The notes beneath the pieces were generated by a model that searched no databases, had not been told where the DNA came from, and was given only the letters and a program-made list of their open reading frames with translations. Below are positions 13,276-33,572 of a stretch of 51,781 bases of DNA, one piece after another. The stretch is taken from IMG/VR virus record IMGVR_UViG_3300032050_000030; one strand, written 5' to 3'. The stretch's first letter is position 1, and each line of letters starts with the position of its first letter. The DNA comes from a virus (taxonomy: Duplodnaviria; Heunggongvirae; Uroviricota; Caudoviricetes). The translations under genes were made by a program, and so were the position numbers.

Positions 13276-13503
13276 ATGCGTGTCGCTGTAATTTGCCCAA
13301 CTTGTGCAACAAACATTAATTCAGTTTGCGTCATTTATGATGGCGAATATCTGGAAAATCTAGATGTATCCCCTGGAGACACTTTAGAAGATATTCTCAA
13401 GAAAATAAATGATAGCTGTGCCTGTGTGCCTCCTACAACTACCACTACTAGTACAAGTAGTAGTACCAGCACAACAACAACTACCACCACTTCTCCTTTA
13501 TAA
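13276..13503 (+). CDS. Module-A stub protein with poly-Thr/Ser tail
   Basis: CPTCATNINSVCVIYDGEYL...DTLEDILKKIN resembles the N-termini of 13514 and 20538; ends TTTTTSTSSSTSTTTTTTTSPL. Confidence 0.75.
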   Translation: MRVAVICPTCATNINSVCVIYDGEYLENLDVSPGDTLEDILKKINDSCACVPPTTTTTSTSSSTSTTTTTTTSPL

Positions 13504-13513
13504 TAATATATAG

Positions 13514-16500
13514 ATGAACGTTAATTGTGGAGCTACCCCCTGTCCAGTTATACTGAATAGCACCTGCGTATTTTACGAAGGTGCTAATCTAGTTTATACA
13601 GGTATCAACACCAATGATAATCTGGAAACTGCTCTTGAGAAGATAGATGCAGCTTTCCAATCATCAGGATTAATATACGTATTTGATAACGGTATAGTTC
13701 AGCTCCCTTCTCAGCCTGTAAAGTTGGGAGGAAGTTTAATTGAAAACACTACTATTAATAGTAGTGGATATTTGTTTAAACTAACGGGAACAATTGAGTC
13801 TGCTGCTTTCAGAACAACTGGAGGCACAGCTTCTCAATTTGTCAGGGGAGATGGTACACTTGGTAATATTCCTATTGCTACAAGTGGTACCTCTGGCTCT
13901 AGTGGTAGTAGTGGAACTAGAGGTACGTCTGGTACCACAGGTACATCTGGTACTAGTGGATCAAGTGGTGCTCCTGGAACACATGGTACGTCTGGAACAT
14001 CTGGTTCTTCTGGAACTAGAGGAACCTCTGGCACTTCAGGGACAAGTGGTACTAGTGGACTTAATGGCACTAATGGTAGCAATGGTACATCAGGTACTAG
14101 TGGCGTAGATGGTATTATAGGATCAAATGGTTCCTCTGGATCTAGTGGAACATCTGGTACAGATGGGGCTGGTTCGGACCCAATGAACTATGTAACTGTT
14201 GGTCTACCTGGAAGTATAGGTGTTGACTTTAATTCTGTAGAAGCTGCAGTTAATAGTATCACTACAGCTACAGCAAGTAGTCCTTGGACAGTTAAGGTAT
14301 ATCCTGGACTCTATATAGAGAATACTATTACAATGAAGTCTTGGATTAGTGTTAAAGGTGAAAGTCACACTACCACTGTTATCCAAGCAAGTAATCCGAA
14401 TAATCCTGTGTTTGTAATGGCGGATCAGTCTCTTGTGATTGATGTGCAGATACAAGGATCAACAGGAACTGGTGCAGCTGCTGTTGTATATTCTTCCCCA
14501 ACCACTCCTCAGACAAATGCAATTGCTTACGTAGAGAACGTAAGATTTGGTGCTAACTACACCCACGCAAAGGTGATCGGTGTACCTGGTGGTAACTGTA
14601 TATTACAATGTTCCAACGTTAAATATGGCGGTTATCCATTCACTGTAGGTTTCCATGTAACGAATAGCGGTGGTGGTATTGGTAGGATGCAGTTGAGAAA
14701 CGTAACTTCCACCAATGGTGGCGTTGTTACCACTGCAGGATTGATATTTGCTTTGGCAGATCAGCCAGGTTGTACATTTATTGTAAACGGATGTTTACTT
14801 ACAAAAGCAGTAGGTGCTCCTGCTGGTACAGGTTTCTGGGTTGAGAACGGTGGTTCTCTACGTCTTACAGCTGTAAACTTCCAGAGATGGGCAACAGCAA
14901 TTTATGCTCCTAATGTGGGATCAGCTCCAAGTATATTTGGATCTGCCCTCAACTTTGAAAACAATACAAAAGACGTTGTTGTACAACATCCTACAGCAAC
15001 TGGTCATATAGAAGGTACAGATTCATTCCTTAAAACAGAAATTCCCATCCCTGCTCCTCTGTATGAGGTGAATACAGATCCTAGGGTGATCACGGTGGGA
15101 ACAAAGGGTGCTGACTTCACATCAATTAAAGCTGCTGTTGACTGGATCACTGGATCAAGTGCAAGTAATAGGTTTGTTGTACAGGTGGGTCCTGGTCAGT
15201 TTTTTGAAGATGAGATTGATCTAACATCCAAACCATACGTAAGTATTGTTGGTAGTAACATTCAGACAACACAGATATTCCCTAATTCTGCTACACAACA
15301 TCTTATCAGGATAGGTCAGAATAACGAGGTTTCGTTTTTGAGTTTGGCAAATGCTCCTGCTGGATATGCTGCTATATATTGTGATGATATTGGTGACTTT
15401 GCTCAAGCGCACAAGGTGTCATTCTACAATTGTGACACTGGTGTATGGATTAAATCTTCTACACAAGACACAGTGTTCTTTGGTGAATATCTGGACATGA
15501 ATGAGGTGTTCAGTTATGGTGTTAAGGTGGAGGCTACAAATGGATTTTTTGCTACAGCCAACCTAGAGAACTACTATCTGTTTCCTGTTGGAGCAGGTGC
15601 TGCCATTGGTACATATGCTTCAGGATCAGGTGCTGAACTATCTATGTACACTTGTTCCTTTGCAGGAGAAGGAGCTACAGGTTCTGTGTGTATTCAGCTG
15701 CAAGATGGTGCTGATCTAGAGACAGCTGGACTAGATATTCCTGATTGGGATTATGGTATACAAGTATTGAATGTGGGCAATCCATGTTCTTTTAAGGTTG
15801 TAGGTAGCATGATTCATAATTCCAGCACTTATGACATTGATGTACAAGACACATTATGTATAGGCAGATTCCAGGGTGTGTCTGATCATACTAAGATAAA
15901 TAATCAAAGTAATAATTTCTTCTGGAACTTCTTGGATGATACAGATGGTGAGAATGATATTACAAGAAAACTATCTGTAACATTTCAAGATGGAACACAT
16001 ACAGATGCATCAACACTCATATTCAACGGTAGTCCTATGGGACTTATGGATGGAGGTAATATCACTGTTGTAAGTGGACTACAAATACTAGTAGATGCAG
16101 GATATGGTTATCTGGAAGATTCAATTTCTCCAGATATATATAAAAGAATAGATTGGACAAATACCAACCTAACACTATCTGCAAATACAGACAATTATAT
16201 ATACATTAACGACAGTGCTATATTGTCTGCTTCTGGTACACCACCAAGCAGCTTGACAAATATTATCCTTGGTAGAGTGGTGACAAATTCCACTACAATT
16301 GAGCTCATAGATGACTCTCCTTACCAAGCAGATCACATGTCTAATAAGCTTTCTACATTCAATAGAAATGCCCTTGGATCTGTATATGTTTCAGGATCTT
16401 CTGTAGCAGAGAATGTTACACCATTCAGACTAGATGTTGGTTCAGGTAATTATTATTTCTCTGAAAACAACTTCCTTCCTTCAGGTGGAACAGCAATTAC

Positions 16501-18937
16501 ATTTAATCAGTATTATAGAGATGGTGGAACTGGTTGGACTATAAGTTCTACGAACACAGTTAATAATACACAATACGATAATGGTACAGGAACGCTTGCT
16601 TCCCTGACAGCATTGTATTATACTAAACATACACTGTATGTTGTAGGTCAGGGAGCTAATGAAAAATACTTCCTTGTACTTGGACAAGCTGAATATTCTA
16701 CACTTGTAGCAGCGGAAGGTGCTGATTTGCCTACACCTCCTACATATTTTACAGATGGTGTAGTTCCCATTGCATCCATATATATTCAGCAGGGAGACAC
16801 AAATATTGTACAGATTGAGGATATTCGCCCAGTGATTGGTTTCAAAGCTAGTGGTGTATCTGCTACAGCTGTACATGGAAACCTTTTGGGTTTAGCTGCT
16901 GATGACCACATTCAATATCTCCTTGTAGATGGAACCAGACAAATGTCTGGTGATCTTGGACTAGGAGGTAATGATATATTCAATGCATCTAACATAACTG
17001 CTTCTGCTCTCACAGATACCAATACACTTAAGATTAGTGGTATTACAAACGATGAGCTACAAACAAGAGTTGTTGTTGTAGACTCTTCTGGTAATACATA
17101 TTATAAAACTTCAGGAGTGGGGGGCACTGGAGGTACATCTGGTACTAGTGGTAGTTCTGGTACTACAGGTACCAGTGGAACTAGCGGTACTGATGGTAGT
17201 TCTGGGACATCTGGTAGCTCTGGTAGTAGTGGATCAAGTGGTACTGATGGAATAAATGGCACTAATGGTACCTCAGGTACTACAGGTACATCGGGCTCTT
17301 CAGGAACCACAGGTACATCAGGAACCAGTGGAAGTAGTGGTTCTAGTGGAATTAACGGAACCAATGGTACGTCTGGAACTAGTGGGGTGGATGGAACAAA
17401 CGGTACTTCAGGAAGCAGTGGTTCTAGTGGAACAACAGGAACTAGCGGCACAACAGGAACTAGTGGTACGTCTGGTATTAACGGTACTAATGGAACTAGT
17501 GGTACATCAGGAATCAATGGTACAAACGGAACCTCAGGCACCACTGGTACTTCAGGAACTACAGGAACCTCTGGCACATCAGGCAGCTCTGGATCATCTG
17601 GTATAAATGGTGTTAATGGTACAAACGGTACTAGTGGAACCAGCGGATCGTCTGGTATAAATGGAACCAATGGCACTTCAGGTACCACTGGAACAAGTGG
17701 AACAAGTGGTGTTAACGGTACCAACGGTACATCTGGTACCACAGGTACAAGTGGAACTTCTGGTCAGAATGGAGTAAATGGTACAAATGGAACTAGTGGC
17801 ACTAGTGGCACAACAGGTACCTCAGGTACAAGTGGTGTTTCTGTGAATGGCACCAATGGTACTAGTGGTACTAGTGGGACCAGTGGTACAGATGGTGTTG
17901 CAGGAACTAACGGAACCAGTGGGACAAGTGGTATTAATGGTACGAATGGTACCAGTGGGACAAGTGGAACAACTGGTACGTCTGGTACAAGTGGAAGCTC
18001 TGGCATAAATGGAACTAACGGTACATCAGGAACTAGTGGTACAACTGGTACATCTGGCACTAGCGGTTCTAGTGGCATTAATGGTGTAAACGGAACCAAT
18101 GGAACTTCTGGTACAACTGGCACAAGTGGTACGAGTGGTACAAGTGGTATACAGGGCACTAATGGTACATCTGGCACCAGTGGCACTAGTGGAATAAACG
18201 GAGCAAATGGTACCAATGGTACATCTGGAACATCTGGTAGTAGTGGATCTAGTGGTGTAGATGGTTCTTTTCTTGGAACTAATGGTACAAGCGGAACAAG
18301 TGGAACCAGCGGTGTGAATGGTGTTATAGGATCTAACGGTTCTTCTGGCTCTTCTGGAACTTCTGGTACAAGTGGTGTAGATGGTATTGTAGGAAGTAAT
18401 GGAACAAGTGGTACTAGTGGTACATCAGGTATATCACCAACAGGTCAAATTATATTAACAGCAGCTGGTAGCTGGCCTTCAATAACATCGGGTGCTAACT
18501 CTCCAATACAAAGTGAAACAATAACAAATGACGTTAACTTTTATTATGTAGGATTTGCAGATGTTGTTACATCGTATTGTAACTGGGCATTAGCTATGCC
18601 TTCAGATTATAATGGAGGCACTATAACAGCTGTGTTCTATTGGGTGGCAGGTGTAGCATCAACAAATAGTGTTGTTTGGGGGTTATCAGCTAGAGCATTT
18701 GCTGACAACCAAGCTTTGGATCAAGCATTTGGTACTGTACAAACTGTAACAGATGCTAATCAGGGAAACGATATAGTAAATATATCAGCAGCAACACCAG
18801 CTATTACAATTGGGGGAACACCAGCTGCAGGTAACTATGTACAATTTAGAGCGGAAAGACAAGGTGGTGCTGGTGGTGATACATTAGCAGCAATAGCAGA
18901 ATTATTACAAATAAGAATAACCTACACAAGAGCTTAA
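13514..18937 (+). CDS. Long fibre/tailspike-like protein: module A, G-T-S repeats, two beta-helix-like domains
   Basis: 1807 aa. Two pectin-lyase-like caps (DFNSVEAAV...VKVYPGLY; DFTSIKAAV...VQVGPGQF) and long G-x-x repeat tracts. Located downstream of the ejection proteins. Confidence 0.75.
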   Translation: MNVNCGATPCPVILNSTCVFYEGANLVYTGINTNDNLETALEKIDAAFQSSGLIYVFDNGIVQLPSQPVKLGGSLIENTTINSSGYLFKLTGTIESAAFRTTGGTASQFVRGDGTLGNIPIATSGTSGSSGSSGTRGTSGTTGTSGTSGSSGAPGTHGTSGTSGSSGTRGTSGTSGTSGTSGLNGTNGSNGTSGTSGVDGIIGSNGSSGSSGTSGTDGAGSDPMNYVTVGLPGSIGVDFNSVEAAVNSITTATASSPWTVKVYPGLYIENTITMKSWISVKGESHTTTVIQASNPNNPVFVMADQSLVIDVQIQGSTGTGAAAVVYSSPTTPQTNAIAYVENVRFGANYTHAKVIGVPGGNCILQCSNVKYGGYPFTVGFHVTNSGGGIGRMQLRNVTSTNGGVVTTAGLIFALADQPGCTFIVNGCLLTKAVGAPAGTGFWVENGGSLRLTAVNFQRWATAIYAPNVGSAPSIFGSALNFENNTKDVVVQHPTATGHIEGTDSFLKTEIPIPAPLYEVNTDPRVITVGTKGADFTSIKAAVDWITGSSASNRFVVQVGPGQFFEDEIDLTSKPYVSIVGSNIQTTQIFPNSATQHLIRIGQNNEVSFLSLANAPAGYAAIYCDDIGDFAQAHKVSFYNCDTGVWIKSSTQDTVFFGEYLDMNEVFSYGVKVEATNGFFATANLENYYLFPVGAGAAIGTYASGSGAELSMYTCSFAGEGATGSVCIQLQDGADLETAGLDIPDWDYGIQVLNVGNPCSFKVVGSMIHNSSTYDIDVQDTLCIGRFQGVSDHTKINNQSNNFFWNFLDDTDGENDITRKLSVTFQDGTHTDASTLIFNGSPMGLMDGGNITVVSGLQILVDAGYGYLEDSISPDIYKRIDWTNTNLTLSANTDNYIYINDSAILSASGTPPSSLTNIILGRVVTNSTTIELIDDSPYQADHMSNKLSTFNRNALGSVYVSGSSVAENVTPFRLDVGSGNYYFSENNFLPSGGTAITFNQYYRDGGTGWTISSTNTVNNTQYDNGTGTLASLTALYYTKHTLYVVGQGANEKYFLVLGQAEYSTLVAAEGADLPTPPTYFTDGVVPIASIYIQQGDTNIVQIEDIRPVIGFKASGVSATAVHGNLLGLAADDHIQYLLVDGTRQMSGDLGLGGNDIFNASNITASALTDTNTLKISGITNDELQTRVVVVDSSGNTYYKTSGVGGTGGTSGTSGSSGTTGTSGTSGTDGSSGTSGSSGSSGSSGTDGINGTNGTSGTTGTSGSSGTTGTSGTSGSSGSSGINGTNGTSGTSGVDGTNGTSGSSGSSGTTGTSGTTGTSGTSGINGTNGTSGTSGINGTNGTSGTTGTSGTTGTSGTSGSSGSSGINGVNGTNGTSGTSGSSGINGTNGTSGTTGTSGTSGVNGTNGTSGTTGTSGTSGQNGVNGTNGTSGTSGTTGTSGTSGVSVNGTNGTSGTSGTSGTDGVAGTNGTSGTSGINGTNGTSGTSGTTGTSGTSGSSGINGTNGTSGTSGTTGTSGTSGSSGINGVNGTNGTSGTTGTSGTSGTSGIQGTNGTSGTSGTSGINGANGTNGTSGTSGSSGSSGVDGSFLGTNGTSGTSGTSGVNGVIGSNGSSGSSGTSGTSGVDGIVGSNGTSGTSGTSGISPTGQIILTAAGSWPSITSGANSPIQSETITNDVNFYYVGFADVVTSYCNWALAMPSDYNGGTITAVFYWVAGVASTNSVVWGLSARAFADNQALDQAFGTVQTVTDANQGNDIVNISAATPAITIGGTPAAGNYVQFRAERQGGAGGDTLAAIAELLQIRITYTRA
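13878..14170 (+). repeat. Short Gly-X-X (GTS/GSS/GTN) repeat tract
   Basis: TSGTSGSSGSSGTRGTSGTTG...; Gly at nearly every third residue, synonymous codons vary. Confidence 0.9.
17110..18432 (+). repeat. Long Gly-X-X (GTS/GTT/GTN/GIN) repeat tract, about 440 aa
   Basis: Nearly continuous G-x-x periodicity without Pro; degenerate at DNA level. Confidence 0.9.
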
Positions 18938-18941
18938 TAGT

Positions 18942-20537: not shown

Positions 20538-23063
20538 ATGATTGTCAGTTGTGAAGCTACTCCTTGTCCAGTGATACTGAGTGCCACTTGTGTTTTTTAC
20601 AAGGGAGAGAATCTCATTTACACTGGCATCAATATGAACGACAACTTGCAAACTGCCCTTGAGAAAATCGATGGGAAGTTTCAAGATGTTGGGCTAGGAT
20701 ATATATTTGAGAATGGTATAATTCAACTTAGTCCAGGTCAGCCTGTAAGATTGGGTGGTTCTCTAATGCAGAACACCACAATCAATAGTGCAGGGTATAC
20801 ATTCACTATATCTGGATCAATTCAAAGTGGTGCACATATTACCACTGGGGGTACATCCTCACAATTTGTTAAAGGAGATGGATCTCTAGATTCAACAACA
20901 TATCAACCTGCAGGTTCATATATTACAGGACTTACAGGGGATGGTATAGCATCTGGTCCAGGTAATGTACCATTGACACTAGCTACTGTAAATGCTAACC
21001 CTGGAACTTATGGAAATGCAGTTACAGTTCCTGTAGTTACAGTGAATGCAAAAGGATTGGTTACAAACATCACCCCTATTGCAATATCTATTCCTGCTGA
21101 TTCAATTGTTCTTGTTGGAGATGTGAGTGCTGTTGGTGTAACTGGTACTAATATTACAGCAACACTAGCCACAGTTAACTCAAATGTATATGGATCAAAC
21201 ACATTCCTGAAGTTTGCAGTTAATGGTAAAGGACTAGTAACCTCTGCCACACCTGTTGTATTAGGAGATTTGACATCTGTTCTTGGGTTTATGCCTGTTC
21301 CAGATAGTAGAACTCTGACAATCAATGGATTAACAAAAGATTTAACAGCTGATAGAACCTGGAACGTAGGCACTGTAACCAGTGTACAAGCATCTGTACC
21401 ACCAGCATTCTCTGTAACATCAGCTCCCATAACATCATTTGGTACAATAAATATTGTAGCTAATGGTGATACATCTCAGTATATAAGAGGTGATGGATCA
21501 TTAGCAGCTTTTCCTGCAGTATCAACAACATCTGGTACTTCTGGTACTTCTGGTGTAAGTCCGTCAATTACAAACATATATAACTCAGATGGTACACTTA
21601 CTGGTAATCGTGTGATGAGCCTTGATTCTAAGCGGTTAATATTTAGGGACACTAATGCTACCTTAACTAACTATACATATTCAGTTGGTGTGCCTACGGG
21701 TGTGACAGCACCTACTTGGCCATCGTCTTTTGTGTATGAAGGTCAGTATAATATTGTACCTGGAACGGGTCCTCAAATATTCAATACGAGAGTATGGGGA
21801 AGAAACACTTCAGCTACAAATAATAATCTTTGGGTTCAAGAAACCTTTGCAGATATTACTTCAGAATCTACTTCCTTTACTAACATTTATAATCAAACAT
21901 TTTTTACAGGTAGAGGTAGTACATTAGATACATCTACTGCTACCGCTTCTGTAATGCGTGGGATTTGGTCAAATATTGGCCATAGATACGCTGGCTCTCA
22001 ATCAACAACAGTACAGATTAATACAAATAATATACAAAGCTTTTACAGCACAATTGTTAATTATATTGGGAATGTAAGTAATGCTTATGGATATTTTTCT
22101 AGTCTGTCACAAGGTTCTTTAACCACATCGCAAACAAATACATTAACAAACCATTATGCTTTTTATGCAGAAGCAACAATAGGTTCTGCGAGTGGGGGCT
22201 CTTCTACTGTTACAAATTACTATGGTTTGTTTCTTAATACCCCAACTGTTGGGGCAACAGGTGTAATCACAAATCGATGGGGAGTATACGCTCCAGACTC
22301 CGCAATGAGTCACTACTTAAACGGGAATGTTGTCATTGGTACTACTACACTTGCTGGATATAAGCTAGATGTGTCTGGAACATCAAGATTGGCAAATACA
22401 CTTTCTTCTGGATTCGGGACAATTATTTCAACCACTCAAACTCAGGCTAATTCTACAGACGTGGGCGATGGTGCTGTATCTGTATCTCATAGTATATCTG
22501 CAACATCAGCAACCAATGAACTTGTAATAAGAGCAATGTCATTTGGTAGCAACAACAACCTAACGGGTGGTGGAGCAGTTACCAATCATAGAGTATGGAA
22601 CGTAGCATCTAGCACTCAAGCGGGAAGTATAACTACAGACCTTGACCAAATATTTATAGAGAGGGGTAATCAAGCTAATGGAACTGTAACAAATAATAGG
22701 GCTATACGTGTTAACACAATGCAAGGAACTAATAGGGCTGGGTTTGCCTGTGTTGCATTATCTGGAACCAATAATGTGTATGCACTACTTGGAACTGTTA
22801 CAATACCTACTGGAAACTGGGGCATTCATCAAACACAGTCTAACTTTAACAACTACTTTGCAGGTAAGATTTTGATTGGCACTACCACTGATCCTGGATT
22901 AGGAGTATTGCACGCTGTTGGTGGTTTATCTACAGATTCGCCTGCTGGAGGTACTGCAAGAACATGGAAGCTTGGGCAATATAATGCAACTGCTCCCACT
23001 GCCACTGGATATATAGAGGTGGAAGTTAATGGGGTTCTTTATAAACTTTTAGCATCAACTTAA
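20538..23063 (+). CDS. Second fibre protein with module-A N-terminus
   Basis: First ~115 aa align with 13514 (TPCPVIL..TCVFY.G.NL.YTGIN.NDNL.TALEKID...QPV.LGGSL..NTTINS.GY...SQFV.GDG.L); shaft-like repeats TVNAKGLVT / AVNGKGLVT. Confidence 0.75.
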   Translation: MIVSCEATPCPVILSATCVFYKGENLIYTGINMNDNLQTALEKIDGKFQDVGLGYIFENGIIQLSPGQPVRLGGSLMQNTTINSAGYTFTISGSIQSGAHITTGGTSSQFVKGDGSLDSTTYQPAGSYITGLTGDGIASGPGNVPLTLATVNANPGTYGNAVTVPVVTVNAKGLVTNITPIAISIPADSIVLVGDVSAVGVTGTNITATLATVNSNVYGSNTFLKFAVNGKGLVTSATPVVLGDLTSVLGFMPVPDSRTLTINGLTKDLTADRTWNVGTVTSVQASVPPAFSVTSAPITSFGTINIVANGDTSQYIRGDGSLAAFPAVSTTSGTSGTSGVSPSITNIYNSDGTLTGNRVMSLDSKRLIFRDTNATLTNYTYSVGVPTGVTAPTWPSSFVYEGQYNIVPGTGPQIFNTRVWGRNTSATNNNLWVQETFADITSESTSFTNIYNQTFFTGRGSTLDTSTATASVMRGIWSNIGHRYAGSQSTTVQINTNNIQSFYSTIVNYIGNVSNAYGYFSSLSQGSLTTSQTNTLTNHYAFYAEATIGSASGGSSTVTNYYGLFLNTPTVGATGVITNRWGVYAPDSAMSHYLNGNVVIGTTTLAGYKLDVSGTSRLANTLSSGFGTIISTTQTQANSTDVGDGAVSVSHSISATSATNELVIRAMSFGSNNNLTGGGAVTNHRVWNVASSTQAGSITTDLDQIFIERGNQANGTVTNNRAIRVNTMQGTNRAGFACVALSGTNNVYALLGTVTIPTGNWGIHQTQSNFNNYFAGKILIGTTTDPGLGVLHAVGGLSTDSPAGGTARTWKLGQYNATAPTATGYIEVEVNGVLYKLLAST

Positions 23064-23076: not shown

Positions 23077-23379
23077 ATGGCAAAAACAATTACACCCATT
23101 AATGTATGGGTAAACGGACAAAACAAACAAGCAAAGATTTTAGATTCTTATGTAACTAGACTCACACTTAACCAATCTGCTAGATTCTATTGGGCAATTT
23201 TTGTAGAGAACACAGATGGCACACAAGGTGAGCAAGTGGCTGAAGGTAATTTGTCTATGGAAGGGGTAGACTATCAATCGTGGGAACAAGACACTTATGC
23301 TTGGGATTATATTTCAAGTAAACTTAATTTGACTATTACAGGGGAATTTGTACCGCCTGTACAAGAACAAAATCCTTAA
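23077..23379 (+). CDS. Hypothetical protein, possibly a fibre accessory/chaperone
   Basis: 100-aa ORF directly after the fibre gene; function inferred from position only. Confidence 0.55.
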   Translation: MAKTITPINVWVNGQNKQAKILDSYVTRLTLNQSARFYWAIFVENTDGTQGEQVAEGNLSMEGVDYQSWEQDTYAWDYISSKLNLTITGEFVPPVQEQNP

Positions 23380-23555: not shown

Positions 23556-23572
23556 CCACCCTTTCTTATTTT
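23540..23572. terminator. Probable bidirectional intrinsic terminator
   Basis: aagggtggt-gaata-accaccctt hairpin followed by tcttatttt, at a convergent gene junction. Confidence 0.65.
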
Positions 23573-26500
23573 ATAACATCTATTACATCCTGAGTTGTTA
23601 TTGATGTGTGACATTCAAACTGTCTGTCTGTTCCCTTATGTATAGGACACCAGTTCCAATCTCCTTTATCAAACTTGAAATTGGGATTGTTCCAACATCC
23701 ATTGCATACATCTTTCTTCACCACTCTTGTACATGTAAACTCATGATCAGGTTGGGTGAAATTACTAATCATTATCACTTTTTTATCCATAGCCCATGCT
23801 AACCAGCTCAATCCTGAGCTTAGTCCTATGAAGAACTCAGAATGATGTATAACATTCATTGTGTTCTCTATAGATGTATCATCTATTTGAAGACAATTAT
23901 TAAATGGGTTCTTCTCTTTAGATACATTTATCACACCATATCCCTGTTCTACCAGATAATCAATCACTCCCTGCCATCCTTCTTTGGTCCAGAACTTACA
24001 CCCAGCTGTAGAATTTGTAGCTATGGTGACATATTTACCATATGGATTGTTACCAATTTGGTAACTTATTCTTGGTTTAATCTCTTGATAATCAAGACCT
24101 AAGATGTTAGCTGCACACTTTTGGAGGTTTACAGTGTTTGGTAAAGCTGGTTCTCTATCTGCATCATAGAACCAACCAATCTTATACATTGCGTACACAT
24201 CTGGAATTACATCTCCTGGATTTACAAACTCCAGTTCTGGATAGACGTCCTGGAATAGGAAGTTCTTGAATGTGCTCACTATTACATGGCAGTTGTGTTT
24301 CTTTTTAAACTCTAAACAATAAGGTATCCAAGCAATATTATCTCCCAGAGAGTTGCTCTCAAATGCTATGTACACTCTCCTTCCTTCTAGATTCAGAACG
24401 TTTTCATATATAAGATCGTTATTCTCCCACACTCTGGTTATCCATCTGGTAAAATAACTTCTGTTTAGTTTCACCCAGCAGTTTGGTCCTATCTCATTAG
24501 CATAATACAGAGCTCCTTTATCATCATAAAAACACACCTTGAACTTGTTTACACTTGTTCCTTTGATTTCCAGGAATGGATGTTCAACAAAGTTTTGGGA
24601 AATAGTTACATTGCTCTTTGGTTTCTGTCTTGTTATAGGCAAGGTCACTATATACTTATATAACTCATTGTGCCCCATAGCAAAATGATAGGACGTATTG
24701 TTGATGGGAACAGTGTAGTCACATATAATTGTATCCAGATCTGTATCAATTGGTTGCAGATATGGAGTGAACATATCCTCATACTGAGGAAGGTTTCTTG
24801 CTATAATTGGTAGCTGATGGGAGATTGCTTCTCTCAACACCAATGGATTACATTCCCATGTACTATTGAACATGAATACGTCAGCAGCCTCAAGGAATGT
24901 TTCTGTATCATTTCTTTCTCCCCACACTATCACATTCTTTGGAACATCTTTCATTAATGGTTCCCAGTAGTGCTGGAAGTTTGGTGCCTGGTTTCCAACA
25001 AAATGAAACATCATGTGTGGGTACTTACGAGCTATTTCTAATCCTTCACCCTGATTCTTACCTGGAGTCCATAGTCCTATATTAACAACATGTTTCTTAT
25101 CACTACTAAACCCAAGCTTCTGTCTAGCAGCCTGTCTTGTTTCAAATGATACAGGATTGATTTCTATGGGAAACTCCAATACTTGTTTGTAGCTAGGCAT
25201 GTTTGCAAATGTCTTCAGATGATGGGGGGTACAGAAGGCATATGCTTCTGGGTGGTACATCTTATGTTTGTCTGGTTCAAACCACACATTGTGACAAGTT
25301 TCTACAATTCTCCAAGTTCTGTTGTTGTCATATAACTTAGCAAGTAGATCCTGAGGTATATGATTGTAACTATCAAATCCTTCTACTATCTCATCTATAT
25401 GCACTATATCAATATTATTGTTTTTAATAATATCGATGATCTCATGTTTGTTATCTGATAAGGTGTAAAAATTATTCACCAGTTCTCTTATCTGGTTCTT
25501 CTGCACTACATATGCTGGACCATAATCTGTATATTCTACAACAAATATCTCTACGTTGCTGTATTTCTTCAGCACCTGTATACGTTTTAACAGGAATCCA
25601 GGCATACCACCTGTAGATAGGTGGGGTGCAAGGAACAGCACTTTCATAGACTTTTTCACTGTCTTTTCCAGTTCATGTATCATTTCGTGCATTACATTGC
25701 TCTTTTTCTCACCATGGAAAGCAAACAGATATTCTTTCTTAGCTGGAATCTTAAACCAGCTAGATATCTCTCTAGCTACACCAGTGAAGCCTAACTCATT
25801 ATATATCTTGTCAATAGTATCAAGTGTACCATTTACATAAACGTATGGAAGTCCTGTAAGTATTTTCTTTTTCCAAAGAAGTATATTTACAATGGTTTCC
25901 TCATGGAATGGTGCATAGTATTGAGGATTCTTCATCACCTCAGGATGCTTACACATCCAATACCACTCATCCAGAAACTTTATACAATTAGTATTGGCTA
26001 CAAAGTATCCAGTTTGTCTGTATTTGGTTCTGACGTATTGGTCTACACCAAACAACTCACATGCTGGAGCTTCTAGTGTCATGGATAAATCGTTCTTATC
26101 TTTAGCCGCACCTCTACCATTTGCAAACAAATATTCATATATCCCCTCTGTGAAATATGGATAGTCTACATTCTTTGGATAGAGGGAGAATATATTGTCT
26201 ATGTATGGAGTGACAACACTATCACTGTCTATATATGCTACAGTGCGAGCATATCCTAATGTATCTTTTACAATAGCTGGGCGTTCTATCAATAGTCTAT
26301 AAATATCACCATCTAATCTATCAATATAGTCAGATTTACTATTTGCTGACACTCTAGAGAACCAGTATCTAGTGGTAGCCCCATCTATATCAGCATCAAA
26401 GTTGATAGTGTACACCACTACGGGAATTTTGCTGAACTTATTTATAGATGCTACACAAGCTTTTGCTGTCTCCAAATAGGAAGATGTTGTACACAGGACA

Positions 26501-27024
26501 TACACCTTATCCACCATACTCTCTAACATGGAATAATATCCATAGTACTCGTTGGTGAATATAGGAGTGAGGAAAGGATATCTCTCCTTCATCACTTCTT
26601 TAGTTAAGTCTGGCTGAAGATGGGTTTCATATATATTCCCATATTCCTCCCCATCCTGCTCCATGGTGTATGGAATAGCCACCATACATTCCTTATTCCA
26701 ATAGCGTATGTTCTTAATAAGCTCCTGGGCTTTGGTGGTTTCTATATGTTCCAGAACATCTCCTAAAATAATAAAGTCGTAGTCCTTATAATCAAAATCG
26801 GTGATATCACCAATATAGACATTGTCATATTTCTGTCTCAGCTGAAACTGATTTACATACGGTTCCCATATTTCTATGGCATCCATTCTATATCCCAGAT
26901 CTCTAAGTAGGTTGGAATATGTTCCTATCCCTGGTCCAACATCAAGTATTCTCTTACTAGTGGGAACGTTCTCAATGAACCACTGCCTCACCTCATCTTT
27001 GAAAAAGTTATAACTGTTTGGCAT
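23566..27024 (-). CDS. Four-domain fusion: SAM methyltransferase + GT-A glycosyltransferase + GT4-like + TibC/Aah-type O-heptosyltransferase
   Basis: ILDVGPGIG and GDVLEH (MTase); YIDSD (DxD); KVLFLAPHLSTGG and ADVFMFNSTWECNPLVLREA (GT-B); SLGDNIAW and CNGCWN...WCP...QFEC (BAHT iron-finger Cys set). ATG 27024 is preferred over the track start 27060 because a -7 element occupies 27030-27037. Confidence 0.8.
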   Translation of the reverse strand: MPNSYNFFKDEVRQWFIENVPTSKRILDVGPGIGTYSNLLRDLGYRMDAIEIWEPYVNQFQLRQKYDNVYIGDITDFDYKDYDFIILGDVLEHIETTKAQELIKNIRYWNKECMVAIPYTMEQDGEEYGNIYETHLQPDLTKEVMKERYPFLTPIFTNEYYGYYSMLESMVDKVYVLCTTSSYLETAKACVASINKFSKIPVVVYTINFDADIDGATTRYWFSRVSANSKSDYIDRLDGDIYRLLIERPAIVKDTLGYARTVAYIDSDSVVTPYIDNIFSLYPKNVDYPYFTEGIYEYLFANGRGAAKDKNDLSMTLEAPACELFGVDQYVRTKYRQTGYFVANTNCIKFLDEWYWMCKHPEVMKNPQYYAPFHEETIVNILLWKKKILTGLPYVYVNGTLDTIDKIYNELGFTGVAREISSWFKIPAKKEYLFAFHGEKKSNVMHEMIHELEKTVKKSMKVLFLAPHLSTGGMPGFLLKRIQVLKKYSNVEIFVVEYTDYGPAYVVQKNQIRELVNNFYTLSDNKHEIIDIIKNNNIDIVHIDEIVEGFDSYNHIPQDLLAKLYDNNRTWRIVETCHNVWFEPDKHKMYHPEAYAFCTPHHLKTFANMPSYKQVLEFPIEINPVSFETRQAARQKLGFSSDKKHVVNIGLWTPGKNQGEGLEIARKYPHMMFHFVGNQAPNFQHYWEPLMKDVPKNVIVWGERNDTETFLEAADVFMFNSTWECNPLVLREAISHQLPIIARNLPQYEDMFTPYLQPIDTDLDTIICDYTVPINNTSYHFAMGHNELYKYIVTLPITRQKPKSNVTISQNFVEHPFLEIKGTSVNKFKVCFYDDKGALYYANEIGPNCWVKLNRSYFTRWITRVWENNDLIYENVLNLEGRRVYIAFESNSLGDNIAWIPYCLEFKKKHNCHVIVSTFKNFLFQDVYPELEFVNPGDVIPDVYAMYKIGWFYDADREPALPNTVNLQKCAANILGLDYQEIKPRISYQIGNNPYGKYVTIATNSTAGCKFWTKEGWQGVIDYLVEQGYGVINVSKEKNPFNNCLQIDDTSIENTMNVIHHSEFFIGLSSGLSWLAWAMDKKVIMISNFTQPDHEFTCTRVVKKDVCNGCWNNPNFKFDKGDWNWCPIHKGTDRQFECHTSITTQDVIDVIK

Positions 27025-27029
27025 ATAGG

Positions 27030-27061
27030 CAAATGTAGAAAAAATATTTGGTAGTTTCAAA
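27030..27061 (-). promoter_or_regulatory. Bacteroidota-type promoter for the glycosyltransferase fusion
   Basis: Minus strand TTTG (27061-27058), 20 nt, TACATTTG (27037-27030), 5 nt, ATG. Confidence 0.7.
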
Positions 27062-27078: not shown

Positions 27079-27106
27079 TTACCTAAGGGTGTACCTTCTA
27101 CTTAAT

Positions 27107-27122
27107 GCTATATTATGCCCAA
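27107..27122 (+). promoter_or_regulatory. Copy 2 of 16-bp motif GCTATATTATGYCCAA
   Basis: gctatattatgcccaa. Confidence 0.45.
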
Positions 27123-27181
27123 CAAGGGCATTTAAGTGACTATAATTACATAACACATCATTTCTTTTCGGAGGGAATGGT

Positions 27182-27808: not shown

Positions 27809-27814
27809 AATAAA

Positions 27815-29300: not shown

Positions 29301-29316
29301 ATTAAAACTCAACAAT

Positions 29317-29631: not shown

Positions 29632-29999
29632 TGCTGGTTAAACTTGCCATAGCCTTCCTCTTTATTGGGATGAATCTCATCCTAGCATATCATGATGCTG
29701 AGCGCATCAAACTCCATTTAAGGATATATCACGGAATAAACACTCTGGTGTATGCATTGCTCCTAGCCCCTGTGTACATATATCTGAAAGATTGGTTCTT
29801 TATAATAGGACTGTTATGTTTAAGAAGAGTGGTATTTGATACATCCTTAAACATTATGAGAGGGTTGAGGTTTGATTACATATCATCCTCCACTGGATCT
29901 TTAATAGACAAACTCTCCTATAGGTTTCAGGCTAAATATGGATATTTTCCATATTATGGAATTTTTATAATCATCACCATACTATCAATTATATTGTAA
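29631..29999 (+). CDS. Small multi-TM membrane protein
   Basis: Three to four hydrophobic segments; TAATG-coupled. Confidence 0.6.
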   Translation: MLVKLAIAFLFIGMNLILAYHDAERIKLHLRIYHGINTLVYALLLAPVYIYLKDWFFIIGLLCLRRVVFDTSLNIMRGLRFDYISSSTGSLIDKLSYRFQAKYGYFPYYGIFIIITILSIIL

Positions 30000-30127
30000 T
30001 GGCAAAATCAAAATCATCAGGAGAGTCCAGAAAGATATCTTTTGGTAAAAGAAAAAAGGGCAAAGCTACCAAGACCAAAGGTCCAAAAGACAAAGCTGTA
30101 TCTAAATACAGAGGTCAAGGAAAATAA
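29999..30127 (+). CDS. Small Lys-rich peptide (42 aa; not in the ORF track)
   Basis: MAKSKSSGESRKISFGKRKKGKATKTKGPKDKAVSKYRGQGK; TAATG-coupled. Confidence 0.6.
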   Translation: MAKSKSSGESRKISFGKRKKGKATKTKGPKDKAVSKYRGQGK

Positions 30128-30179
30128 TCAATTTGATTATACTAAATTTAATTAACTCTGTTAATCGAATTTATTATAG

Positions 30180-30213
30180 CTCATTGCTAATCAAATATTA
30201 ATGTATAGATTTG
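30180..30213 (+). promoter_or_regulatory. Bacteroidota-type promoter (CTCATTG-N19-TAGATTTG)
   Basis: Same architecture as 13237-13270; ATG 7 nt downstream. Confidence 0.65.
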
Positions 30214-30220
30214 TAAACTT

Positions 30221-31561
30221 ATGGCTATAATACCTAAACAAATAGGCTGGAGCCAGGAGTCTAATCTCCTGTGGGAACTTCTTAGGAAGACTGATAGACT
30301 TATTGGTGTAACTTCTAATGTAAACACTAATGTCAACGTAGACAGTGCTATTACATTTGCTCCTTCCACATCACAGGATGCCTTTGGTAGGCTTAGAGTT
30401 TCAGAACCTCTTACAATGTTTGATTCTAGCCATAGGTTTGATGATAATGATCTTTGGTCTACAGCCACTGCTACAAGCGGTGCAGCTGTATTTAATGCTA
30501 ATCAAGGACTTGTAGATCTAAATGTTACAGCTGCTTCTGGATCTTCTGTTACAAGAGAAACAATCAAGGTGTTTGCTTATCAACCAGGTAAATCACTCCT
30601 GGTGATGAACACATTTGTAATGAGTGCTCCTAAAGCAGGTCTTACACAACGTGTTGGATATTATGGAGTTGAAAATGGATTCTATCTGGAACAAGCAAAT
30701 AGTGACATAGCTTTTGTGAAAAGAAGCTATGTAACAGGATCTGTTGTAAATACACCAGTTTTACAAGCTGATTGGAATGTAGATAAGCTTGATGGTAACG
30801 GTCCTTCAGGACTTACACTTGATCTCACCAAGGCTCAGATACTTTGGATGGATTTAGAGTGGTTGGGTGTAGGATCTGTACGTATAGGATTTGTAATAAA
30901 CGGACAGTTTATTTTATGCCATACGTTCCAACATGCTAACATCATCACTAGCACATATATTACAAGTGCATCATTACCTCTGCGTTACGAGATATTCAAC
31001 ACAGCTGGTACATCTGGAGCTAGTACATTGAAACAAATTTGTTCTACAGTGATTTCTGAGGGTGGTTATGAACTTAGAGGTGCACAGTTGTCTGCTGGCA
31101 CATCTATTGTTGCACCAAGAACCTTTGCTTTACCAGGAACCTACTACCCTATTGTATCAATAAGACTTAAATCTACAAGACTAGATGCTATTGCAATTGC
31201 AACAGCTGTTTCTATTTTAGGACTAGGTAATGGTAAAAATTACCAGTGGAGAGTGGTGAATGGTGGTGTTACAACCACTGGAGGATCATGGTTAACTGCA
31301 GCAGCTGATTCTTCCGTAGAATATAATATTACAGCCACTTCTGCATCAGGAGGAAGAGTGTTAGCTAGTGGATTTGTTAATTCATCTAACCAAGGATCTC
31401 CTTCAATTAATATTCTCAAGGAAGCTCTTTTTGCTAATCAGCTTGAAAGAAATGGGTTAACAGGCACACCTTACGAGATTGTAGTAGAAATGGCTGTAGC
31501 CACAACATCTGGTGGTGAGGGTGCATATGCTTCTATAGATTGGGAAGAAATCAGTAGATAA
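30221..31561 (+). CDS. Putative structural protein with module-B N-terminus
   Basis: Starts KQIGWSQESNLLWELLRKTDRLIGVT; beta-rich body (DAFGRLRVSEP...). Confidence 0.6.
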   Translation: MAIIPKQIGWSQESNLLWELLRKTDRLIGVTSNVNTNVNVDSAITFAPSTSQDAFGRLRVSEPLTMFDSSHRFDDNDLWSTATATSGAAVFNANQGLVDLNVTAASGSSVTRETIKVFAYQPGKSLLVMNTFVMSAPKAGLTQRVGYYGVENGFYLEQANSDIAFVKRSYVTGSVVNTPVLQADWNVDKLDGNGPSGLTLDLTKAQILWMDLEWLGVGSVRIGFVINGQFILCHTFQHANIITSTYITSASLPLRYEIFNTAGTSGASTLKQICSTVISEGGYELRGAQLSAGTSIVAPRTFALPGTYYPIVSIRLKSTRLDAIAIATAVSILGLGNGKNYQWRVVNGGVTTTGGSWLTAAADSSVEYNITATSASGGRVLASGFVNSSNQGSPSINILKEALFANQLERNGLTGTPYEIVVEMAVATTSGGEGAYASIDWEEISR

Positions 31562-31576
31562 TAAATTTAATATATC

Positions 31577-31714
31577 ATGTCAGTACCAAATAGACAAATA
31601 GGATGGAGTAATGAGGCTAATCTGCTTTATCAAATATCTAAGCAATTGGATCAATTGATTAAGGTGACAGCAGCATTGTCTACCACTACCACCACAACAA
31701 CAGCAGCTCCATAG
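31577..31714 (+). CDS. Module-B stub protein with poly-Thr tail (45 aa; not in the ORF track)
   Basis: MSVPNRQIGWSNEANLLYQISKQLDQLIKVTAALSTTTTTTTAAP; aligns with the N-terminus of 30221. Confidence 0.8.
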   Translation: MSVPNRQIGWSNEANLLYQISKQLDQLIKVTAALSTTTTTTTAAP

Positions 31715-31745
31715 AGCAAACATAAAACCAACAACATCTACATAT

Positions 31746-32336
31746 ATGAGGGACTTAAAATTTATCTGTGAAGAATGGAAAATTATTCCAGAATTTGATG
31801 GATATGAAGTTAGTAGTCTAGGTAATGTTAGAGGCATAAACAGACTTAGAAAAGGTAAAAATGGACTATGTTTGCTAAAAGGAAAAGATTTAAAACAATC
31901 TTTTAATAAAAAAGGATATCCTGAGGTAAGGTTTCGTAAAGAAGGTTGTCACACTAGACTAGTTCATAAACTTGTGGCTAGTGCCTTTCTGACAAAACCT
32001 GAAGGTTGTACCCAGATTAACCATATTAATGGTGTAAAAACAGATAATAGGTTAGAAAACTTGGAGTGGGTTACTCAATCAGAAAATCAACTACATGCCT
32101 ATAAACTTGGTTTACAACCTAGTAGAGCTGGTGAAGGAAATGGTAGAGCAAAACTTAATGATGAAAAGGTTACTGCTTTAAAAGAATTATATAATTCAGG
32201 AAAAAGTATAAAAGAGATTTCTAAAATAACAAACATAAATTTATATACTGTAAGACAAATTATTTATGGACAAACTTGGAAATCAAACACTACCAAAGTA
32301 GTTAGAAGAGATGAAAGATTTAAACCAACTATATAA
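31746..32336 (+). CDS. Free-standing NUMOD4-HNH homing endonuclease
   Basis: EEWKIIPEFDGYEVSSLGNVR (NUMOD4); LVHKLVASAF...QINHINGVKTDNRLENLEWVTQSEN (HNH). Confidence 0.9.
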   Translation: MRDLKFICEEWKIIPEFDGYEVSSLGNVRGINRLRKGKNGLCLLKGKDLKQSFNKKGYPEVRFRKEGCHTRLVHKLVASAFLTKPEGCTQINHINGVKTDNRLENLEWVTQSENQLHAYKLGLQPSRAGEGNGRAKLNDEKVTALKELYNSGKSIKEISKITNINLYTVRQIIYGQTWKSNTTKVVRRDERFKPTI

Positions 32337-33364
32337 TGAGTAAAGAACTAAAATTCGTGACCGCCCAGCCCGATGATAACTATTACATCTGGCAAGTGCA
32401 CATGTGGCTAGAAAGTCTGAAAACGCTTGGACATTCTGACAAAGCTATTGTTCTTGTTTTCACTCCCAACTTCAGAGAAAGGAATCAGGAATGGAAAAAG
32501 GTTGCTGACCTCTATCCAGAAGCTGAGTTCTTTTATGTAAAGGATGAGGATGAGATTAGCCAGATGCTCAAGGTTTACATTCCTGTATTACGTCCTTATT
32601 CTCTGATGAAATACTTCCAGGCTAATCCAGATATGGTGAATAAGGCAGTGTTTTATTGTGATAGTGATGTGGTGTTTACAGAGAACTTCAATGTAGATGC
32701 TTATCTGGAAGATGATGTATGCTATCTATCAGATACAAACAGTTATATAAGTGCCTCATATTTTGACAGCAAGGTGAAGGATGTACTTCCTGACAAGCTG
32801 AAAGAATATAAAACCAGGGATGTGCTGGCAGAAGTGACCAGCATGATTGGTATAACAAGAGAGATTTGTGAGCGCAATGAGGAAAATTCAGGCGGTGCAC
32901 AGTATCTCCTGAAAAATATAGGTGCAAGTTTCTGGGAAAAGGTGTTGGGTGATTGCTTAATCATCAGAACCTATCTCAGAAATATAAATAAAGATTACTT
33001 CGAGAACGAGAGTAAAGGATATCAATCTTGGTGTGCGGACATGTGGGCTGTTCTCTGGAACCTCTGGTTGAGGGAACAAGAGACAAAGGTGATTCCAGAA
33101 CTGGAATTTGCATGGAGCTCAGATCATATATCCAGACTTGAGAGAGTGGGCATCCTGCACAATGCAGGAATTGTAGGAGATAGTCAGGGTGACATTCCTA
33201 CATTCTACAAGGGTAAATACCACACAGGGGATAATCCTTTTAAAGACCCACACATCTACGAGGTGCTTGATAGTGAGAAGAGTAGGACACTCTGCAACCA
33301 CTACTACTTAAAACAATTATTCAACATTAAAAACAAATACAATTTAGATTATGGCCACAATTAA
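32336..33364 (+). CDS. GT-A glycosyltransferase resembling peptide O-glycosyltransferases (GT95 HPAT / GT96 SGT1-like)
   Basis: YYIWQVHMWLESL, LRPY, FYCDSDVVF (DxD), WCADMWA, ILHN; order and spacing recall the Y.xWQ...DxD...W.xEM pattern of GT95/GT96. Family call by eye. Confidence 0.55.
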   Translation: MSKELKFVTAQPDDNYYIWQVHMWLESLKTLGHSDKAIVLVFTPNFRERNQEWKKVADLYPEAEFFYVKDEDEISQMLKVYIPVLRPYSLMKYFQANPDMVNKAVFYCDSDVVFTENFNVDAYLEDDVCYLSDTNSYISASYFDSKVKDVLPDKLKEYKTRDVLAEVTSMIGITREICERNEENSGGAQYLLKNIGASFWEKVLGDCLIIRTYLRNINKDYFENESKGYQSWCADMWAVLWNLWLREQETKVIPELEFAWSSDHISRLERVGILHNAGIVGDSQGDIPTFYKGKYHTGDNPFKDPHIYEVLDSEKSRTLCNHYYLKQLFNIKNKYNLDYGHN

Positions 33365-33572
33365 CAAACGCCCTCTCAAAGCTTATGTACGCTTTGATGG
33401 TTCTGGGAGAGTAGTTCCCAGCAGCCTGATCCTCAGAAGGAAGAAGCCTAAGGTGGGAAATTGGACAGAGATTCCAGCATATGAGTGCTGCAATGAAACC
33501 ACTACCACCACTACTAGCACTAGCACTAGCACTAGCACAACAACTACCACTACCACAGCAGGTCCACTATAA
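33351..33572 (+). CDS. Module-C stub protein with poly-Thr/Ser tail
   Basis: KRPLKAYVRFDGSGRVVPSSLILRRKKPKVGNWTEIPAYECCN then ETTTTTTSTSTSTSTTTTTTTAGPL. Confidence 0.8.
   Translation: MATINKRPLKAYVRFDGSGRVVPSSLILRRKKPKVGNWTEIPAYECCNETTTTTTSTSTSTSTTTTTTTAGPL

Follow-up and report, generated by a model that had tools for sequence, protein, structure and literature searches.

Glycosylation of phage particles has, to our knowledge, been shown experimentally only in mycobacteriophages and has been considered rare elsewhere. There, capsid and tail-tube subunits reportedly carry O-linked glycans at their C-termini. Statements in PMC11256854 and PMC12363180, which cite Freeman et al. 2023 (Cell Host Microbe), name Che8, Corndog, and Myrna as mycobacteriophages with virion glycosylation and describe capsid proteins glycosylated by phage-encoded glycosyltransferases. 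We analyzed a stretch of DNA of 51,781 nucleotides, referred to here in its entirety as the window, and judging from its sequence and a structural model, we consider it reasonably likely that it represents a freshwater crAss-like phage with a module that O-glycosylates its own particle proteins. The module would resemble the mycobacteriophage system in pairing phage glycosyltransferases with the phage's own particle proteins, which here is a prediction, and the C-terminal capsid and tube sites of mycobacteriophages match the position of the Thr tails in Firmicutes phages that carry the GT-A fold glycosyltransferase of the window. However, the enzyme family is a different one from that of the Che8 or Corndog glycosyltransferases, with no Mycobacterium phages among 77 GT-A-matching records (tblastn, E 1e-5), and the putative acceptors are pure Thr runs. 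In the window, these runs are located on free-standing stubs with fiber-type heads rather than on capsid or tube subunits, and the host group and habitat of the mycobacteriophages are unrelated to those of this phage.

Three further systems invite comparison. Tailed-phage fiber genes combine a conserved N-terminal attachment domain with exchangeable distal domains. The window contains three such head families, each common to several adjacent genes with different cargoes, but one member per family is cargo-less and carries a Thr tract only. SGT1 (the plant/algal peptidyl-serine alpha-galactosyltransferase, GT96) and HPAT1-3 (hydroxyproline O-arabinosyltransferases, GT95) start O-glycans on hydroxy-amino acids of extended, Pro-containing repeat peptides. 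The phage GT-A shares their GT-A fold with a DxD motif but is only ~10-13% identical to them, lacks a Pfam HPAT match, and would act on Thr instead of Ser or Hyp; because the alignment begins at HPAT1 residue 66, it also lacks the membrane anchor region. Lastly, the window encodes a domain like the Aah/TibC autotransporter O-heptosyltransferases (TIGR04414; TibC structures 4RAP and 4RB4). This domain exceeds the curated cut-off along almost the full model and retains the LGD motif and Cys cluster, but it is encoded by a phage, as part of a fusion with three further enzyme regions. The relevant features of the window are as follows.

13276..13503, + strand: stub 1, Cys-rich head A (~50 aa) and a 20-residue Thr/Ser tract ending in T7-S-PL
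13514..18937, + strand: collagen-like fiber protein, 1807 aa, head A at its start (Pfam Collagen, E 4e-69; PHROG tail fiber families)
20538..23063, + strand: 841-aa protein, head A at its start
23077..23379, + strand: 100-aa protein without a Thr tail
23566..27060, - strand: fusion enzyme, 1164 aa, four regions, accessory gene
23569-24546, - strand: Aah/TibC-type O-heptosyltransferase domain, C-terminal in the fusion enzyme (residues 839-1164)
24736-25473, - strand: GT1/GT4-type domain of the fusion enzyme
25471-26613, - strand: middle region of the fusion enzyme, invariant D-S-D motif
~26671-27012, - strand: methyltransferase of the fusion enzyme
30221..31561, + strand: virion structural protein (phrog_1645, profile E 2e-137), head B at its start
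31577..31714, + strand: stub 2, head B (QIGWS.E.NLL...LI.VT) and S-T7-AAP
31746..32336, + strand: HNH/NUMOD4 homing endonuclease, an insertion separating stub 2 from the GT-A gene, outside the proposed system
32336..33364, + strand: GT-A fold glycosyltransferase (predicted fold), 342 aa, phrog_4417, invariant DxD (D109, D111)
33351..33572, + strand: stub 3, head C (...KAYVRFDGSG...PKVG.W...YECC) and a 20-residue Thr/Ser tract ending in T7-AG-PL
33586..34776, + strand: DUF285/PKD protein, 396 aa, head C at its start
34795..36333, + strand: 512-aa protein, head C at its start
36330..36725, + strand: 131-aa protein, head C at its start

Thr/Ser-tailed stubs and the heads they share with larger proteins

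The three stub ORFs (13276, 31577, and 33351) encode proteins of 75, 45, and 73 aa, respectively, each composed of a head of 35 to 50 aa and a Thr/Ser tail. All three tails end with T7, then one or two residues, and then P or PL, and the heads are not related to one another. A six-frame scan of the window identified four runs of at least eight Thr or Ser residues, three of which are the stub ORFs, while the expected number is 0.015 (mean of 200 shuffles) or ~0.01 (from amino acid composition), such runs being ~200-fold rarer in shuffled sequence. Thr codons in the stub tracts are mixed (ACA 11, ACT 14, ACC 12, and ACG 0), which excludes simple repetition of one triplet; in nine long window ORFs, Thr is encoded by ACA at 53%, ACT at 30%, and ACC at 14%. 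Translations and scan thus agree with the initial annotation, which had described three poly-Thr/Ser stubs at these positions, drawn from three unrelated families, with a common T7-(S/AA/AG)-P(L) ending and mixed Thr codons.

Since each head also starts large virion-type neighbors, the stubs can be viewed as cargo-less versions of these proteins. ORFs 13514 and 20538 begin with sequences ~28% identical to head A of stub 1, and the phrog_1645 protein that starts with head B is ~63% identical to virion structural proteins of cyanophages. The 100-aa protein at 23077..23379 adds a fourth head family, as its homolog in one relative (G001; 51% identical) ends in T7...T9. It had been proposed that the stub modules dock on the virion; the heads held in common with fiber- and virion-type neighbors fit docking, and it is this sharing of heads that points to a virion location.

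We also assessed how the stubs are kept in other genomes. Among 21 stub 3 relatives in IMG/VR, the heads are 64-85% identical, and 15 of the 21 are tail-only forms in which the head is well conserved and the number of repeat units varies while the pattern of a Thr run plus Pro is kept. Stub 3 is present in all eight complete crAss-like relatives of the window, and the stub 2 family is present in six (G001, G003, G004, G005, G006, and G007). In these relatives, the same tracts also connect heads to their cargo or form the C-terminal ends of fiber and capsid-module proteins. Contigs from RNA libraries of four studies contain exact matches to stub 3, stub 2, and the GT-A gene, with DNA carry-over as a possible source.

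A GT-A glycosyltransferase and its association with Thr tracts

The 342-aa enzyme lies between stubs 2 and 3, as first described, with the endonuclease gene in front of it and its end overlapping the start of stub 3 by 14 nt. The endonuclease gene is absent from the interval between stub 2 and the GT-A gene in relatives. The structural model has a GT-A fold (pLDDT 93), and its best Swiss-Prot fold matches are SGT1 (GT96; E 2.6e-10) and HPAT1-3 (GT95; TM ~0.6), with E values from 2.6e-10 to 1e-6; the PDB fold matches glycogenin, WbbM, and UGGT are all GT-A enzymes. All 27 close and 15 distant homologs compared retain D109 and D111, and more than 2000 homologs were found. Residues 5-306 match positions 1-272 of the 293-position phrog_4417 profile (E 1.5e-54). 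This phage family is functionally unannotated. A Pfam search with E up to 10 returned no matches to the enzyme, HPAT (PF23452) included, and an Atlas search found HPAT on just 10% of the members of one GT-A-related cluster. The GT95/GT96 likeness suggested in the initial annotation therefore stands for the fold, where SGT1 and HPAT are closest, but has no counterpart in a sequence-level Pfam HPAT match.

The GT-A gene occurs in all eight complete crAss-like relatives, each time flanked by stub 2 and stub 3 family genes, and no small genes other than GT-A and stub 3 are kept in all eight. Because the eight relatives are syntenic kin, this cassette represents one lineage and not eight independent cases. 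Independent lineages are represented by nine distant isolates with the GT-A family, from seven host genera (Chryseobacterium, Enterococcus, Lactobacillus, Lactococcus, Clostridium, Staphylococcus, and Lacticaseibacillus/Levilactobacillus). In all nine, a virion gene no more than ~700 bp from the enzyme contains a Thr-rich tract; in eight, this gene lies immediately upstream. The tract is mostly the C-terminal tail of the major tail/tube or capsid protein. By comparison, ~118 kb of far flanks contain a single Thr-tract ORF.

The reverse test gave a similar association from the side of the tracts. GT-A is present in 7 of 118 IMG/VR loci chosen solely by (ACN)8, with the tract 156-344 bp from the enzyme in six of the seven, compared to a background of 77 of 50,697 whole phage records. 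The other 111 T8 loci have no GT-A enzyme in the stretch of sequence examined, and Thr tracts therefore do not require this family. In phiFL1A and R3.3, both of which carry the enzyme, the tail-tube and capsid proteins end in Thr tails that their orthologs lack in seven of seven relatives without the enzyme at that place; the same contrast is seen inside the genus Coetzeevirus. The expected co-occurrence of Thr tracts and transferases is borne out for GT-A, and a phage-encoded glycosyltransferase is genetically tied to virion proteins with candidate acceptor tails.

The TibC/Aah-like fusion enzyme and alternative readings

The initial annotation also recognized a TibC/Aah-like domain, and our searches confirm it: the domain scores 281.4 bits against TIGR04414 (curated cut-off, 200), covers profile positions 28-372 of 374, and matches the TibC structure 4RAP with an E value of 8e-51. 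The LGD motif and the CxxC...C...C cluster are aligned in this match, and we take them to be the catalytic motif and the iron-binding cluster, respectively, of TibC-type enzymes. No autotransporter-type Pfam matches, which would point to a paired substrate with beta-helical repeats, were found among the ORFs scanned. This confident membership in a family of protein O-glycosyltransferases, the fusion to a second transferase and a methyltransferase, and a Thr-tailed 119-aa gene that directly adjoins the fusion enzyme in G001 could all suggest that the enzyme acts on the stubs too, or instead of GT-A, and initiates on the Thr/Ser tails a methylated glycan built from heptose. We regard this as rather improbable. 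Four of the eight complete relatives retain stubs without the fusion enzyme, a pattern of stubs without transferase that had been named beforehand as evidence against the proposed link. Thr-tract ORF counts are no higher with the enzyme (8, 7, 2, and 4) than without it (9, 9, 3, and 7), no window proteins were found to co-vary with it among the relatives, and no Thr tracts lie within 10 kb in any of three unrelated phages with the domain. Known Aah/TibC substrates, moreover, are Ser residues in beta-helical autotransporter repeats and not disordered Thr runs. Our results thus do not support linking the TibC/Aah-like enzyme to the stubs; the fusion enzyme would instead be an accessory glycosylation island of its own.

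It is also unlikely, in our assessment, that the Thr tracts are flexible unglycosylated linkers or spacers, with the stubs as blank plugs on head-binding sites and GT-A modifying the host envelope, DNA, or a small molecule. The tract is clearly an interdomain linker in longer family members, most T8 loci have no enzyme nearby, GT-A matches no Pfam family at the sequence level, and glycan on the Thr tails is a prediction. However, the adjacency of enzyme and tract repeats in all nine distant isolates, orthologous tail and capsid proteins gain or lose their tails jointly with the enzyme, peptide O-glycosyltransferases are the nearest folds, and a C-terminal tail with nothing behind it is not a linker. 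The mosaic fiber region raises another concern, namely that the stubs are truncated by-products of recombination among head-sharing fiber genes and have no function of their own. Identity to the near-identical relative G006 falls from ~95% to ~70-80% just ahead of stub 1, which is itself located within an indel missing from G006; the stub 1 homolog in G004 has another C-terminal part in place of the Thr tract; and heads recur on many cargoes. Stub 1 is also 19 kb away from the GT-A enzyme, which, like its absence from G006 and the missing Thr tract in G004, speaks against the glycosylation reading. We find an origin of the stubs as recombination by-products very unlikely given the conserved heads and Thr-run-plus-Pro pattern of the tail-only stub 3 forms, the retention of stubs 2 and 3 among the relatives, the mixed codons of the tracts, and the RNA-library contigs that span the stubs.

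A predicted glycosylation module and its significance

The glycosylation reading, which we favor, draws on fold, gene order, and co-occurrence. Its core enzyme would be a soluble 342-aa GT-A of a phage family whose fold is nearest to the plant enzymes initiating O-glycosylation of extensin peptides rich in Ser and Hyp, and it would add a sugar onto the Thr residues of T(5-10) followed by one or two residues and then Pro. In each stub, the Thr tract appears to replace the distal domain behind the head of the large neighboring fiber or virion proteins. The heads may plug the stubs into the same particle sites as their full-length paralogs, and the glycosylated Thr tract would then jut out as a stiff mucin-like stalk. 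It may shield the particle, alter adsorption, or reduce aggregation, as initially proposed. The presence of the stubs, and of a plant-like enzyme that adjoins Thr-tailed particle proteins in many unrelated phages, makes a sugar coat on the particle probable. More tentatively, many lineages, crAss-like phages among them, might build mucin-like virion glycoproteins via this Thr-run O-glycosyltransferase family, with cargo-less glyco-stalks competing with fibers for sockets and so tuning the particle surface, and with the heptosyltransferase island as an extra layer in some strains.

The hypothesis is directly testable because the cultivable phages phiFL1A, Lactococcus phage 1706, Clostridium phage phiCTP1, and SA2 carry the same enzyme. 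If it is true, sequence would suffice to predict particle glycosylation, through one unannotated enzyme family and an acceptor signature that is easy to spot, a Thr run and then Pro. This would hold for phages of Firmicutes and Bacteroidota as well as for the abundant crAss-like phages of freshwater. The stubs suggest a plug-in display, in which a cargo-less glycosylated stalk would use sockets common with receptor-binding fibers. Such a coat would bear on the adhesion of phages to mucus, polysaccharide, or cells, on the resistance of particles to proteases and aggregation, and on how antibodies view therapeutic phages.

Thr/Ser-tailed proteins of a freshwater crAss-like phage

The source of the window is a freshwater crAss-like phage, as indicated by the genomes of its relatives, the capsid protein of one of them, its nearest isolate, and its habitat. 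Its closest kin are IMG/VR genomes of 108 to 123 kb; the eight relatives that we compared as whole genomes are all estimated to be at least 98% complete, and four have direct terminal repeats. The major capsid protein of one relative (G001) is of the Crassvirus type (PF23898, E 1.5e-25), a Chryseobacterium phage is the closest isolate by both RecA and the GT-A fold glycosyltransferase listed below, and window DNA was found in freshwater and lake metagenomes. A first reading as a T4-like cyanophage, based on the phrog_1645 protein (ORF 30221, “virion structural protein”) being ~63% identical to cyanomyovirus proteins, was dropped given the genome sizes of the relatives and the G001 capsid protein. 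General knowledge of the crAss-like group suggests that the host is probably a member of the Bacteroidota.

Two giant ORFs (>2287 and 2113 aa; 2-13206) are kept in all relatives and have no match in Pfam or PHROG; they may encode a virion RNA polymerase or cargo proteins, as in crAss-like phages. The segment that holds them (1-13257) shares ~95% nucleotide identity with one relative (G006). Just before stub 1, identity to G006 falls sharply to ~70 to 80% or no match, a drop that marks a recombination breakpoint where the fiber region starts. The stretch at 13.5 to 30 kb corresponds to only ~8.7 kb in G006.

Features of the window, with lengths and tails of the stubs taken from translation
13276-13503, stub 1: 75 aa, a Cys-rich head (A) and a 20-residue Thr/Ser run, ending T7-S-PL; head A is also on a collagen-like fiber (13514) and an 841-aa protein (20538), at ~28% identity with the Cys pattern conserved
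31577-31714, stub 2: 45 aa, ending S-T7-AAP; head B is also on the phrog_1645 virion protein (30221), at 39% identity with an invariant QIGWS.E.NLL...LI.VT
33351-33572, stub 3: 73 aa, a 20-residue run, ending T7-AG-PL; head C is also on a DUF285/PKD protein (33586), a 512-aa protein (34795), and a 131-aa protein (36330), at ~50% identity
32336-33364, plus strand, GT-A: 342-aa GT-A fold glycosyltransferase
23566-27060, minus strand, fusion enzyme: 1164 aa, with a SAM methyltransferase, a middle region, a GT1/GT4-type domain, and a C-terminal Aah/TibC domain

The three stubs are as the initial annotation described them: the ORF translations agree, and their Thr/Ser runs lie far above shuffled expectation. 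A six-frame scan of the 51.8 kb found four runs of at least 8 residues, three of them the stub ORFs and the fourth antisense to a collagen-like gene, against an expected mean of 0.015 in shuffled sequence and ~0.01 from amino acid composition. The stub tracts use ACA, ACT, and ACC in similar numbers, while the long ORFs of the window favor ACA (53%); with codons so mixed, the tracts are not simple triplet repeats. None of the stubs had a tblastn match among 50,697 phage records.

The stub 3 family has 21 IMG/VR relatives with heads 64 to 85% identical. Fifteen consist of head and tail only, and their tails repeat T7-8 plus AAP, VAP, SP, or the like one to five times in tandem; in five the Thr tract leads into a globular domain, and one has a globular domain without a tract. 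The stub 2 family, which we collected by comparing the whole genomes of the relatives, occurs in six of the eight: it is tail-only in G001, G006, and G007, bears extra domains in G003 and G004, and was detected in G005 from the head alone. Head B in G001 is also found on a collagen-like paralog. Of a fourth head family, the window has a tailless member (23077-23379) and G001 a Thr-tailed one; a fifth (…LTTAGTDTGPFNLYS…) was seen in relatives only. Because the heads are common to large neighbors, and the families include both tail-only and cargo-bearing members, we read the Thr tract as a linker or stalk, and the stubs as versions that lack cargo within a modular design of head, stalk, and cargo. 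Collagen-like stalks are trimeric, so heads A and B presumably work at the N terminus of trimeric fibers.

Four freshwater metatranscriptome libraries, each set apart by study (four studies), yielded contigs that match stub 3 exactly in every run, GT-A in three, and stub 2 in one. Since DNA carry-over is possible, these contigs are consistent with transcription of these three genes and with no more than that. The fusion-enzyme gene is mostly uncovered by them, which is not a sign of silence.

Linkage of the GT-A enzyme to Thr tracts

GT-A falls in phrog_4417 and in a protein family of >2000 members, and has no Pfam match at E up to 10 and no NCBIfam match. Its AlphaFold model, built with 27 homologs, has a pLDDT of 93 and a pTM of 0.91. 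The best Swiss-Prot fold matches of the model are peptidyl-serine alpha-galactosyltransferase (GT96) and hydroxyproline O-arabinosyltransferases (GT95), and those among solved structures (glycogenin, WbbM, and UGGT) are all GT-A enzymes. The DxD motif (D109, D111) is invariant in close and distant homologs. The GT95/GT96 likeness initially assigned to this protein is borne out by fold, but not as membership at the sequence level.

An HNH/NUMOD4 homing endonuclease gene (31746-32336) is inserted between stub 2 and GT-A in the window. The relatives carry no gene at that site, and in them stub 2 directly adjoins GT-A.

GT-A is present in all eight complete relatives, every time between stub 2 and stub 3 family genes, a cassette that counts as one lineage because the eight are kin. 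The only small genes kept in all eight are GT-A and stub 3. Beyond these relatives, GT-A adjoins Thr-rich tracts in nine distant isolates from seven host genera. In phiFL1A, a 21-residue Thr/Ser run closes the major tail protein and T5-KP-T5-KP-T7 the capsid protein; in Lactococcus phage 1706, T10 ends the major structural protein and T9 the capsid protein; and the phiCTP1 tail tube has T5-NAPI-T6-V at its C terminus. The tracts of ENFP1 and Semele are repeats of (TTVAP)n and (T5-S-T3-VKP)n, respectively, and MA9V-3 has runs of 41 and 21 residues in two genes upstream of GT-A. Across phyla, the putative acceptor recurs in one form, a run of Thr separated from a Pro by one or two residues. The far flanks of the distant isolates, ~118 kb, contain one Thr-tract ORF.

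We also ran the search in reverse, from 118 IMG/VR loci picked solely by eight consecutive ACN codons. An in-frame T8 is present in 89 of them and a GT-A family enzyme in 7, against a background of GT-A matches in 77 of 50,697 whole phage records. The tract lies 156 to 344 bp from the enzyme gene, at the 3' end of the upstream gene, in six of the seven loci. Tail-tube and capsid proteins orthologous to those of phiFL1A bear Thr tails in both phages with GT-A (phiFL1A and R3.3), whereas in seven relatives without GT-A at that place (four Streptococcus prophages, the Lactobacillus phages phiJL-1 and Sabazios, and Bacillus SPP1) they end exactly where the tails would start. One contrast in this set falls inside the genus Coetzeevirus.

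Thr-rich ORFs overlap, in another frame, the 3' end of the major tail gene in Staphylococcus phage SA2 (14649-14927 of that locus) and of the major capsid gene in Enterococcus phage 9183 (11002-11121), an overlap which suggests that a programmed frameshift may give a Thr tail to just a subset of the subunits. Three genes downstream of its Crassvirus-type major capsid gene, G001 encodes a ~390-aa protein (66223-67401) with homologs in G002 to G004; in four of the eight relatives its C terminus is made of two T7 units. Searches with this T7-tailed protein, at 392 aa, gave no more than a faint hint of the auxiliary capsid protein of crAss001 (score 0.82) and one uninformative PHROG.

The TibC-like domain of the fusion enzyme

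The initial annotation correctly identified a TibC/Aah-like domain: it scores 281 bits against TIGR04414 (cutoff, 200) over positions 28 to 372 of 374, aligns to TibC as solved in 4RAP (E 8e-51), and retains both the LGD motif and the CxxC...C...C cluster. No Pfam family matches the enzyme's middle region at E up to 10; the D-S-D motif there is invariant, and a fold model from four sequences was of too low confidence (pLDDT 53) for a structure search.

A tie between this enzyme and the stubs, as had been proposed, is not supported. The domain occurs in only four of the eight complete relatives, which have 8, 7, 2, and 4 Thr-tract ORFs, compared with 9, 9, 3, and 7 in those without it; G006, so close to the window across the giant ORFs, is among the latter. 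None of the window proteins covaries with the TibC-like enzyme, and no Thr tract lies within 10 kb of the TibC-like domain in three unrelated phages. The gene is on the other strand, within a variable island flanked by the fiber and lysis genes, and additional transferase-like genes accompany it in G001, G005, and G007.

Four small minus-strand genes beside the TibC-like gene of G007 (32334-34826) resemble, by eye, a sulfotransferase, a GT9-like transferase, a nucleotidyltransferase (HxGH-type motif), and a P-loop kinase, a set that hints at sulfated glycans. In Microcystis phage Mel-JY01, the TibC-like domain is also the C terminus of a fusion (~1226 aa, annotated as methyltransferase FkbM; 4750-8430 of that locus), so its fusion to other enzymes recurs in phages; the gene adjoins a structural protein gene. 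Contigs of two RNA libraries join window positions 23706 and 28220 with four extra letters between them, which may reflect a related strain with another arrangement around the fusion-enzyme gene.

Proposed O-glycosylation of particle proteins

Virion O-glycosylation, as originally proposed, is supported for GT-A, on five linkage tests, and not for the TibC-like enzyme. We consider it reasonably probable that GT-A O-glycosylates the phage's own particle proteins. Our literature search on phage Thr-rich tails and glycosyltransferases turned up no publication that connects phrog_4417 or Thr tails with glycosylation. To our knowledge, virion glycosylation in mycobacteriophages is the only case shown by experiment. 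That system is described, with reference to Freeman et al. 2023, in PMC11256854 and PMC12363180. The window phage would follow the same principle; the two systems differ in enzyme family, acceptor signature, free-standing stub proteins, and host range.

Acting in the cytoplasm, soluble GT-A would glycosylate the Thr runs of freshly synthesized particle proteins, and the stubs would dock via their heads at the sites of their full-length paralogs. The glycosylated tract would become an extended, protease-resistant stalk, and such a modified stalk may benefit the phage through shielding, adhesion, or colloidal stability.
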